DNA of 7,299 nt from a virus (IMGVR_UViG_2639763115_000004:1-7299), one strand, 5' to 3'; shown: positions 1,527 to 7,299, counted from the first letter of the stretch. Program-made: numbers and translations. Notes: a model not told the origin generated them from the sequence alone.

Positions 1527-2879
<1,353 letters not shown>

Positions 2880-5102: not shown

Positions 5103-5270
5103 ATGCACTTCCGAGTCACAGGTGAATGGAATGGAGAACCATTCAACAGAGTTATCGAAGCAGAGGACATCAACGACTGCTATAACCACTGGATGATATG
5201 GGCGCAGATAGCGCATGCAGACGTAACCAATATTCGAATTGAAGAACTGAAAGAACACCAAGCCGCCTGA
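5103..5270 (+). CDS. Small hypothetical prophage protein (55 aa, MHFRVTGEWNGEPFNRVIEAEDINDCYNHWMIWAQIAHADVTNIRIEELKEHQAA)
   Basis: GGAGA 7 nt upstream of the ATG at 5103; followed at once by a terminator hairpin. Not in the ORF track (under 60 aa). Confidence 0.5.
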   Translation: MHFRVTGEWNGEPFNRVIEAEDINDCYNHWMIWAQIAHADVTNIRIEELKEHQAA

Positions 5271-5283
5271 TGGCGGTTTTTTA
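5261..5283 (+). terminator. Putative intrinsic terminator
   Basis: ccgcc (5263-5267), loop tgat, ggcgg (5272-5276), then tttttt (5277-5282); overlaps the stop codon of the 55-aa gene. Confidence 0.55.
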
Positions 5284-5293
5284 TTGCCTGATT

Positions 5294-5308
5294 TGCAGGT
5301 TCGATTCC
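5294..5308 (+). other. tRNA-derived fragment: 15 nt identical to the T-arm 5' half of tRNA-Arg(CCU) argW (tgcaggttcgattcc)
   Basis: Exact 15-nt match to recalled argW, with degenerate similarity a few nt upstream; the rest of the tRNA is absent. Confidence 0.4.
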
Positions 5309-5327
5309 CTATTCGGAGATAGCACTC

Positions 5328-5528
5328 ATGCAACACGAACTACAGCCTGATTCACTGGTTGATTTGAAATTCATCATGGCCGATACTGGCTTCGGTAAAA
5401 CCTTCATCTACGACCGGATTAAGTCCGGCGACCTGCCAAAAGCCAAAGTTATCCACGGACGAGCAAGATGGTTATATCGTGACCATTGTGAATTCAAAAA
5501 TAAGCTCTTAAGCCGCGCTAATGGGTAA
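5328..5528 (+). CDS. torI: AlpA-family excisionase / recombination directionality factor (TorI-like, 66 aa)
   Basis: SLVDLKFIMADTGFGKTFIYDRIKSGDLPKAKVIHGRARWLY fits the AlpA/Xis winged-helix pattern; length and position next to an argW attR core fit KplE1 TorI as I recall it. GGAGA 8 nt upstream. Confidence 0.7.
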   Translation: MQHELQPDSLVDLKFIMADTGFGKTFIYDRIKSGDLPKAKVIHGRARWLYRDHCEFKNKLLSRANG

Positions 5529-5544
5529 AATAGCGGGTAAAATA
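5523..5544 (+). repeat. Tandem direct repeat gggtaaaata x2 (5523-5532, 5535-5544), candidate RDF or integrase arm-type binding sites
   Basis: Two exact 10-bp copies at a 12-bp period spanning the torI-like stop codon, about 60 bp from the att core. Confidence 0.35.
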
Positions 5545-5602
5545 TTTCTCACATCTAAAAAATATCATTCCAATCAATCCCCTGCCGCGCCAAGTAGATG
5601 TC

Positions 5603-5617
5603 TGCAGGGGACACCAT
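5603..5617 (+). other. Putative attR core: terminal 15 nt of tRNA-Arg(CCU) argW (ctgcaggggacacca)
   Basis: Exact match to the recalled argW 3' end including CCA; no intact tRNA upstream, so this is a duplicated att core rather than a gene. Confidence 0.6.
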
Positions 5618-6000
5618 TTATCCTTCCAACGAAATCCACCTTCCCCGCGTAAAAGTTGGGTTTGGCAGCACACTTGCCCTAAATCTACTCATTTTCCCTG
5701 CAACAGGTTGAAATCTCAGCACTGTGCGGCGATGACTAAACAGCCCCGGGCCTGGCAATGTATTCATCACACAGAATCCTGATCGCGAAATCTGGCTTGA
5801 CTCGATACTTCACTCCGCAATGCATTCCTTGATGGATTAGCAGGCCCGTGATACACGGGACAGGTCGCTGAATTACGACAATTTCCTGGAAATCAGCGAA
5901 CCGCGTATCCTGAGTACATTTGAGCGACTGTTCCAGAACATGAATGAGGCGTTTGGATTAGGCGATTATTAGCCGCGCTAAGCATTTTGGTATTATTATT

Positions 6001-6040
6001 TTCCGGTTGAGGGATATAGAGCTATCGACAACAACCGGAA
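6001..6040. repeat. 9-bp inverted repeat ttccggttg / caaccggaa with a 22-nt spacer, 12 bp downstream of the cscB stop
   Basis: Perfect reverse-complement arms at 6001-6009 and 6032-6040; no U-tract on the cscB transcript side, so not a canonical terminator. Confidence 0.3.
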
Positions 6041-6051
6041 AGAGTTTACGT

Positions 6052-7299
6052 CTATATTGCAGAAGGTACAGGCGTTTCCATCACCATTTGCTCACGCTTT
6101 TTACTCAGGAAGAAAATGCCAAATAACAACATCAGGCAGACAATACCCGAAATTACGAAGAAAACCGTCTGGTAACCTGCATGGTCAAAAAGTATTCCAG
6201 TCGGCGTTGAAAGCAACACAATCCCCAACGAACTAGCAATTTGAAAACCAATCAGAAAGATCGTCGACGACAGGCGCTTATCAAAGTTTGCCACGCTGTA
6301 TTTGAAGACGGAAATGACACACAGTGGAACCTCAATGGCATGTAACAGCTTCACTAATGAAATAATCCAGGGATTAACGAACAGTGCGCAGGAAAGAATA
6401 CGCAACGCCATAATCACAACACCGATAAGTAATGCATTTTTTGGCCCTACCCGGTTAACAAAGAAAGGAATAATGGCCATGCACAGCGCTTCGAGTACAA
6501 CCTGGAATGAGTTGAGATAACCATACAGGCGCGTTCCTACATCGTGTGATTCGAATAAACCTGCATAAAAAACAGGAAAGAGCTGTTGATCAAAAATGTT
6601 ATAGAAAGACCACGTCCCCACAATAAATATGACGAAAATCCAGAAGTTTCGATCCTTGAAAACTGCAATAAAATCCTCTTTTTTTACCCCTCCCGCATCT
6701 GCCGCTACGCACTGCTGATCCTGATATTTAAAACGCATGTTGATCATCATAAATACAGCGCCAAATAGCGAAACCAACCAGAAGTTGATATGGGGACTGA
6801 TACTGAAAAATATGCCAGCAAAGAACGCGCCAATCGCATAGCCAAAAGATCCCCAGGCGCGCGCTGTTCCATATTCGAAATGAAAATTTCGTGCCATTTT
6901 TTCGGTGAAGCTATCAAGCAGACCGCAGCCCGCCAGATACCCCAAGCCAAAAAAGAGCGCCCCCAAAATTAGACCTACAGAAAAATTGCTTTGCAGTAAC
7001 GGTTCATAAACGTAAATCATAAACGGTCCGGTCAAGACCAGGATGAAACTCATACACCAGATAAGCGGTTTCTTCAGACCGAGTTTATCCTGGACGATGC
7101 CGTAGACCATCATAAATAGAATACTGGTAAACTGGTTGACCGAATAAAGTGTACCTAATTCCGTCCCAGTCAACCCTAGATGTCCTTTCAGCCAAATAGC
7201 GTATAACGACCACCACAGCGACCAGGAAATAAAAAAGAGAAATGAGTAACTGGATGCAAAACGATAGTACACATTTCTGAATGGTATATTCAGTGCCAT
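6052..7299 (-). CDS. cscB: Sucrose:H+ symporter, LacY-family MFS oligosaccharide permease (CscB-like, 415 aa)
   Basis: Complete 415-aa ORF with its start codon at the window edge; multi-TM hydrophobic protein whose N-terminus MALNIPFRNVYYRFASSYSFLFFISWSLWW and length match CscB as I recall it; clear LacY-family similarity. Confidence 0.8.
   Translation of the reverse strand: MALNIPFRNVYYRFASSYSFLFFISWSLWWSLYAIWLKGHLGLTGTELGTLYSVNQFTSILFMMVYGIVQDKLGLKKPLIWCMSFILVLTGPFMIYVYEPLLQSNFSVGLILGALFFGLGYLAGCGLLDSFTEKMARNFHFEYGTARAWGSFGYAIGAFFAGIFFSISPHINFWLVSLFGAVFMMINMRFKYQDQQCVAADAGGVKKEDFIAVFKDRNFWIFVIFIVGTWSFYNIFDQQLFPVFYAGLFESHDVGTRLYGYLNSFQVVLEALCMAIIPFFVNRVGPKNALLIGVVIMALRILSCALFVNPWIISLVKLLHAIEVPLCVISVFKYSVANFDKRLSSTIFLIGFQIASSLGIVLLSTPTGILFDHAGYQTVFFVISGIVCLMLLFGIFFLSKKREQMVMETPVPSAI

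Follow-up and report, generated by a model that had tools for sequence, protein, structure and literature searches.

The attR junction of a lambdoid prophage at argW in csc-positive Escherichia and the three-part spacer that separates it from the sucrose permease gene cscB

The window, by which we mean the whole 7,299-nt stretch analyzed here (IMGVR_UViG_2639763115_000004:1-7299), begins with the early-left half of a lambdoid prophage and ends in host DNA. ORF calls placed an O-like replication gene, a cII-like gene and a cro-like gene on the minus strand of the prophage part. The immunity region resembles those of HK446, Sf101, Sf6 and 434, and the best collinear match to the window in complete E. 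coli genomes reached 66%, since the prophage is a mosaic. The features discussed below are as follows.

1846-2478, plus strand: LexA-family repressor gene, on the same strand as a run of early genes that ends with the torI ORF
5103-5270: eag-like ORF
5328-5528, plus strand: torI, a 66-aa ORF for the excisionase (recombination directionality factor) of the KplE1/HK620/Sf6 module and the last prophage gene
5602-5617, plus strand: attR core, the 16-nt repeat CTGCAGGGGACACCAT, a lone exact match just after torI
5618-5735, no strand: host flank native to the position downstream of argW in csc-positive E. coli, about 118 bp, with no recognizable coding or RNA feature
5736-5963, plus strand: internal fragment of a DUF4942 gene (pseudogene), 228 bp, on the same strand as argW and corresponding to residues 76-151 of a 281-aa protein
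5964-5983, no strand: junction between the DUF4942 relic and the csc module; DUF4942 homology stops at 5963 and Citrobacter csc homology starts at about 5984
about 5984-6051, minus strand: 3' tail of the csc module with a conserved hairpin, about 68 bp
6052-7299, minus strand: cscB, complete coding sequence for a sucrose:H+ symporter of the LacY family, 415 aa, whose ATG is the last triplet of the window

The product of cscB matched family profiles over their full length and above the cutoff, with 590.4 bits on TIGR00882 (cutoff 220; profile positions 1-396 of 396) and 636.8 bits on PF01306 (profile positions 2-412 of 413). In an alignment to LacY structures (PDB 1PV6 and 2Y5Y; CscB residues 11-399, E = 1e-63), CscB R147, R300, H320 and E323 fell on LacY R144, R302, H322 and E325, the residues for proton coupling and sugar binding. 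LacY E126 is replaced by D129 in CscB, whereas LacY E269 is replaced by Val, with a Glu (E270) three residues further on. The two proteins share PF01306 and align over almost their entire length, but CscB is a member of a different subfamily encoded in a sucrose operon, and sucrose is its predicted substrate. Annotated relatives of the window carry this gene as cscB or as an oligosaccharide MFS transporter. More distant CscB relatives, at 61-63% identity, were seen in Rosenbergiella species.

On the prophage side, TorI of the window is identical to K-12 TorI of KplE1 (CPS-53) at 100% of amino acids, and annotated relatives also give this gene the name torI. The gene ends 73 bp before the att core and adjoins it as the last phage gene, as in an attR of the KplE1/HK620 type. 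The free phages HK620, Sf6, HK633 and Kapi1 have an hkaC-attP region that was 97-98% identical to window positions 5271-5617. In some genomes that are otherwise 99% identical over 5250-7299, an extra segment of about 439 bp with a 114-aa hypothetical ORF lies between the eag-like ORF and torI, a small moron-like indel in the recombination module (window about 5270-5328 against 6049-6393 of relative L002).

The core itself, CTGCAGGGGACACCAT, occurs once in the window, with none expected from shuffled sequences. Its first 15 nt coincide with the 3' end of tRNA-Arg(CCU) argW, and the 16-mer is the same as the K-12 attL/attR core and as the published 16-nt core of KplE1 (PMC2951348). ARAGORN found no tRNA gene in the window, where just the 16-nt fragment is present, which is what an attR retaining no more than the displaced end of the tRNA should show. 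In two relatives (L002 and L003) the attL identity extends to position 5622, giving 21 nt. The earlier note had placed a cscB-like gene about 435 bp from an argW-derived att core; the complete cscB and the exact core at 5602-5617 bear this out, with a measured distance of 434 bp (5618-6051) from core to cscB stop codon.

Compared with the KplE1 (CPS-53)/HK620/Sf6 module, in which intS lies at attL, torI at attR and the 16-nt core in argW, the window has an identical TorI and an identical core, whereas the remaining prophage is a different mosaic with its own type of immunity region. K-12 KplE1 was 91% identical to the window from torI to the core (5560-5617). Past the core K-12 has the dsdC flank, in contrast to the csc-type flank and the 21-nt attL identity of the window.

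A separate observation concerns TTGCAGGTTCGATTCC, which stands just upstream of torI at 5293-5308 on the plus strand and is an exact 16-nt copy of the argW T-arm, for which the chance expectation was 0 matches. In the argW tRNA this segment sits immediately 5' of the att core, with a 1-nt overlap, so that 293 bp containing torI here come between two stretches that are adjacent in the argW 3' end. The same copy is present in K-12 CPS-53. In GenBank, the CUS-3 record stops at this 16-mer and marks it as 'attR core'; the one for HK620 annotates the stretch as an integration promoter activated by cII and assigns the attP core to the other 16-mer.

Where the phage ends was addressed with a rebuilt empty site, in which the K-12 yfdC-argW sequence was joined to window positions 5618-6051 (720 bases). 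This construct was covered by at least 80% at one place in 1412 genomes, the listed matches being single pieces, and the best match was 99.0% identical over all 720 bases. In that genome, CP55_Sichuan, an intact argW is followed directly by ACACCATTTATCCTTCC and the rest of the window's allele, and then by cscB, cscK, cscA, cscR, a 5'-truncated dsdX and dsdA. The TTTATCC that follows the core in the window is the same in prophage-free genomes with the window's allele, and Shigella flexneri has the same unoccupied site with the common allele. The DNA beyond the core is therefore contiguous with argW in unoccupied genomes, as it should be at an attR. Since the empty site is contiguous in 1412 genomes, the prophage is best read as a simple insertion at argW and cscB as host DNA. 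By these sequence comparisons the right prophage end is position 5617 and the insertion at argW is clean; cscB, convergent with torI, would have been left intact by integration and would not be phage cargo.

Four GenBank records deposited as complete phages (ON470608.1, ON470622.1, ON470589.1 and ON470594.1) match the spacer and cscB and also carry cscK and cscA, and could suggest that cscB and the spacer belong to the phage, either as a moron or through imprecise excision and specialized transduction, with the true end beyond 7299. These four were, however, the only phage records matching 5618-7299, and the one examined, ON470608.1, also contains a tRNA-Arg and stops inside host genes, so that its limits overshoot the att site. 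The matches of HK620, Sf6 and Kapi1 stop at the core, and the contiguity of spacer and cscB with intact argW in the prophage-free genomes points the same way. We therefore rejected cscB as phage cargo and consider this origin extremely improbable.

The DNA that follows the core belongs to a locus already known in the literature. The csc genes have been described at a recombination hotspot beside argW, where they replace or disrupt dsd genes (PMC11251922, PMC3032704), and lambdoid phages often target the argW/dsd site (PMC11251922). The variable argW-dsdCXA/cscRAKB locus goes back to Jahreis et al. 2002 and Moritz & Welch 2006, as those studies are cited in PMC11251922 and PMC3032704. Several RefSeq E. 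coli chromosomes were 99.0-99.4% identical to the window over 5250-7299, and the gene order in these close relatives is torI-attR-spacer-cscB-cscK-cscA-cscR-'dsdX-dsdA-emrY, with cscK annotated as aminoimidazole riboside kinase, cscR as a LacI-family regulator and dsdX truncated at its 5' end. The window itself stops at the cscB start codon; cscK, cscA and cscR come after cscB in those genomes that match it at 99% over 5250-7299. In K-12, where torI and the core are the same, the core gives way to a 95-bp flank of unrelated sequence and then to dsdC-dsdX-dsdA.

The order argW, (prophage), cscB, cscK, cscA, cscR, truncated dsdX and dsdA is thus that of the known locus, from which the window shows no essential difference, except that its allele is a minority one. 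A spacer at least 99% identical to that of the window was found in 39 of 5426 genomes, and the common alleles are about 90% identical to it in the spacer and about 96% in cscB. This divergence between spacer/cscB alleles is unusually deep for E. coli chromosomal DNA. The earlier note had proposed that the context was the variable argW island carrying csc or dsd genes, and had suggested a comparison with csc-positive argW regions; the torI-attR-spacer-csc order in relatives, the dsdC of K-12 and the empty site all agreed with that proposal. Taken together, we consider it highly probable that the window holds the attR junction of a lambdoid prophage with an IntS-TorI module in the 3' end of argW, in an Escherichia with the csc regulon at the argW-dsd locus, and that the core and cscB are separated by a three-part spacer. 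The attL, intS, the intact argW and the genes past cscB (beyond 7299) would be as in the relatives, from which their presence is extrapolated.

In an O157 genome (L004, 2960-3000), a longer fragment of the argW 3' end, TTCGATTCCTGCAGGGACACCA, slightly damaged by the loss of one G, stands before the same spacer. Upstream of this fragment lies a different element with a gene of the serine-recombinase family and not torI.

The first part of the spacer is specific to this locus. Of 5426 genomes, 2631 had the segment 5618-5752, each in a single copy and at no other place, and the whole spacer was found in about the same number (2624); nearly all genomes with the flank hold the entire spacer next to cscB, and the region occurs in all csc-positive genomes. 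The flank is contiguous with an intact argW in prophage-free genomes, and K-12 has an unrelated sequence at this position. No Pfam match in six frames and no Rfam match was obtained for the flank.

The second part is a gene relic. A tblastn search with the DUF4942 protein of Nissle 1917 aligned its residues 86-151 to 5766-5963 with 64% identity over 66 aa and one in-frame stop (E = 2e-23 against the region), and against near-identical loci (L001 and L002) the alignment covered residues 76-151 with 55% identity over 76 aa, corresponding to window positions 5736-5963. Profile PF13708 matched the relic above its cutoff, with 32.8 bits (cutoff 25) over profile positions 5-62 of 190, and a six-frame Pfam scan of the whole spacer returned PF13708 at 30.6 bits and no other credible family. 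At the DNA level, 5765-5955 was 74-78% identical to the interior of DUF4942 genes elsewhere in E. coli chromosomes. An intact DUF4942 ORF is absent from the spacer: the N- and C-terminal parts are missing, an in-frame TAG stands at 5838-5840, where the common allele has TCG, and further stops lie upstream of it.

The ORFs that the spacer does contain are chance-like, 43-51 aa long and overlapping its left edge. The earlier note's statement that 5618-6051 has no credible ORF thus held, but it had missed the pseudogene fragment, which came up in a sensitive DNA search and in a translated-similarity search of the kind that the note had recommended, and which gives substance to its suggestion of decayed island sequence in the gap.

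In relatives, PGAP annotates short 'DUF4942 domain-containing protein' ORFs at the relic, and a search of 5.8 billion proteins with the relic translation returned short ORFs of 44-131 aa only, most of them DUF4942 or hypothetical proteins and mostly from E. coli. These appear to be calls on the same relic. No close full-length DUF4942 relative was present among the 5.8 billion proteins, and the best intact paralogue was 55-64% identical in protein.

The annotation of such ORFs in many RefSeq genomes (50-85 aa in PGAP), where they form database clusters, one seen on 805 contigs, together with the presence of the spacer in all csc-positive genomes, could argue for a working small protein or a small RNA encoded there. 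Against a protein speak the TAG and the upstream stops in the frame of the window, the variable length of the annotated ORFs (44-131 aa) and the short section of the DUF4942 profile that is covered. A promoter scan of 5250-6300 gave no promoter-like site, and Rfam at a permissive threshold over 5200-6200 gave nothing in the spacer. In a diverged Escherichia (L008) the core, the hairpin and cscB are kept, while deletions have taken 32 of the 118 positions of the flank and 132 of the 228 positions of the relic. These deletions, with the absence of a promoter-like site and of an Rfam family, fit neutral decay of everything except the hairpin and argue against a working small gene. The same Rfam search touched STnc130 in the phage part, which was set aside as sub-threshold (E = 0.26; 25 bits against 55).

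Comparison with the O157 allele bears on the same question. Divergence was distributed as follows.

flank 5618-5735: 12.7%
DUF4942 relic 5736-5963: 7.9%
3' tail 5984-6051: 7.4%
cscB third codon positions: 9.9%
cscB second codon positions: 0.5%

The differences in cscB numbered 11, 2 and 41 at codon positions 1, 2 and 3, respectively. The spacer diverges at about the rate of cscB third positions, so it mostly looks neutral, and the relic is no exception, which again speaks against a small gene. A functional small protein or RNA is accordingly very unlikely in our estimation, and the spacer apart from the hairpin probably evolves neutrally.

Beyond the relic lies the short junction at 5964-5983. 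An 11-nt direct repeat, AGCCGCGCTAA (5511-5521 and 5971-5981), has its second copy here; it was judged to be chance, since that copy is not kept in the common allele.

The third part of the spacer was delimited by comparison with Citrobacter. In a scan of species-representative genomes, CscB orthologues with 90-92% protein identity were found in three Citrobacter amalonaticus genomes, where cscR, cscA, cscK and cscB form a complete cluster flanked by ytfT-yjfF on one side and by a truncated chemoreceptor gene, fbp and mpl on the other, a chromosomal location other than the argW site of E. coli. DNA homology between the window and these csc loci runs from the cscB stop codon to about 5984 only, which suggests that the last 68 bp or so travel with csc, and that the relic and the flank belong to the Escherichia argW locus. 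By these comparisons the spacer is a three-part mosaic of a locus-specific flank, a DUF4942 fragment and the end of the csc module.

This end piece contains a hairpin with perfect 10-nt arms at 6000-6009 and 6032-6041, 22 nt apart, and an additional inner 4-bp stem, beginning about 10 nt past the cscB stop codon. The inverted repeat reported earlier at 6001-6040 is therefore real and conserved across species, but its extent is 6000-6041. A perfect repeat of at least this length arose in 10 of 1000 mononucleotide shuffles of the spacer, and the predicted folding energy on the cscB strand was -16.6 kcal/mol (z = -2.3). As the sole part of the spacer common to the C. amalonaticus csc loci, the hairpin is assigned to the csc module.

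All 10 outer and 4 inner pairs were unchanged in seq­uences from E. coli, Shigella, a diverged Escherichia and Citrobacter amalonaticus (seven in total), and substitutions and a 3-nt indel were confined to the apical loop. Between the window and Citrobacter, 34% of cscB third positions differ, so the invariance of the stems points to constraint. As every pair is invariant in the seven sequences, there is no covariation among them, and the fold rests on prediction.

With regard to function, the 10-pair stem has 4 G-C pairs; the nucleotides that come after it are AAAAUAAUAAUACC on the cscB strand and AGAGUUUACG on the opposite one. There is no U tract after the hairpin on either strand, and a terminator scan made no call; an intrinsic (Rho-independent) terminator was therefore rejected, as the U tract that defines it is missing. 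The hairpin may instead be a 3' stem-loop that stabilizes the cscKB transcript or helps to end it. It would then mark or protect the cscKB 3' end, acting as a barrier to exonucleases or as a stop that is weak or assisted by Rho, and not as an intrinsic terminator of the canonical kind.

The missing U tract would also suit an element that acts as DNA, such as a protein-binding palindrome, a target of recombination or insertion, or a boundary of a mobile csc cassette. The homology between the E. coli and Citrobacter csc loci stops about 18 nt beyond the hairpin, and in one genome, Escherichia sp. MOD1-EC7003 (L007, 6464-6524), the end of an IS66-family element interrupts the apical loop, at which point the contig ends. 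The insertion is a single case, however, and no recombinase was associated with the csc module at any locus examined. Moreover, 3' stem-loops typically stand where this hairpin does, about 10 nt past the stop codon that closes the operon, and a variable apical loop with both stems kept fits a folded strand. On balance we regard a DNA-level element as unlikely, though less so than the small-gene and phage-cargo alternatives, and favor the 3' stem-loop. The earlier note had offered two alternatives for the gap, decayed island sequence or a 3' structure of cscB, and the gap holds both, since the DUF4942 relic and the csc hairpin are both present; the structure, of putative role, belongs to the csc module.

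The relic in turn bears on the history of the locus. DUF4942 genes are found in CP4-type islands, such as that of Nissle 1917, where ECOLIN_RS16980 (281 aa) follows the cbeA, cbtA, DUF5983 and DUF957 genes near the far end of the island. The relic shares 55-64% protein identity and the orientation to the tRNA gene with such genes, but only residues 76-151 of 281 are left here, with an in-frame stop. ORF calls and the six-frame Pfam scan detected no integrase, cbtA/cbeA or other island gene at the locus. A second argW-core-like repeat, which would mark the old island end, was not found between cscB and dsdA at up to three mismatches; in the absence of such a repeat beyond csc, the island origin draws on the protein family, its usual CP4 position and its orientation. 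Most likely, the relic is a leftover of the far end of a CP4-type island. An older island of this type (P4-integrase) would once have occupied argW and later been deleted, leaving the DUF4942 fragment behind.

A more speculative scenario, which we put forward tentatively and regard as less likely than not, is that a CP4-type island at argW brought the csc regulon into Escherichia as cargo located at its far end or just past it. The island would then have decayed to the 228-bp relic, and the hairpin without a U tract may be a functional end-piece of a csc cassette that moved between Escherichia (argW) and Citrobacter (yjfF/fbp).

For annotation, these results fix the prophage boundary at 5617 and assign cscB to host DNA despite the four GenBank phage records that include it; the short ORFs that many genome annotations show at this place as 'DUF4942 domain-containing protein' are to be read as pseudogene pieces. 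The significance of the locus goes little beyond such correct annotation. To the history of the argW-dsd/csc hotspot it adds a small detail, namely that an older island would have left a scar beside argW and that the csc module appears to bring its own 3' hairpin.
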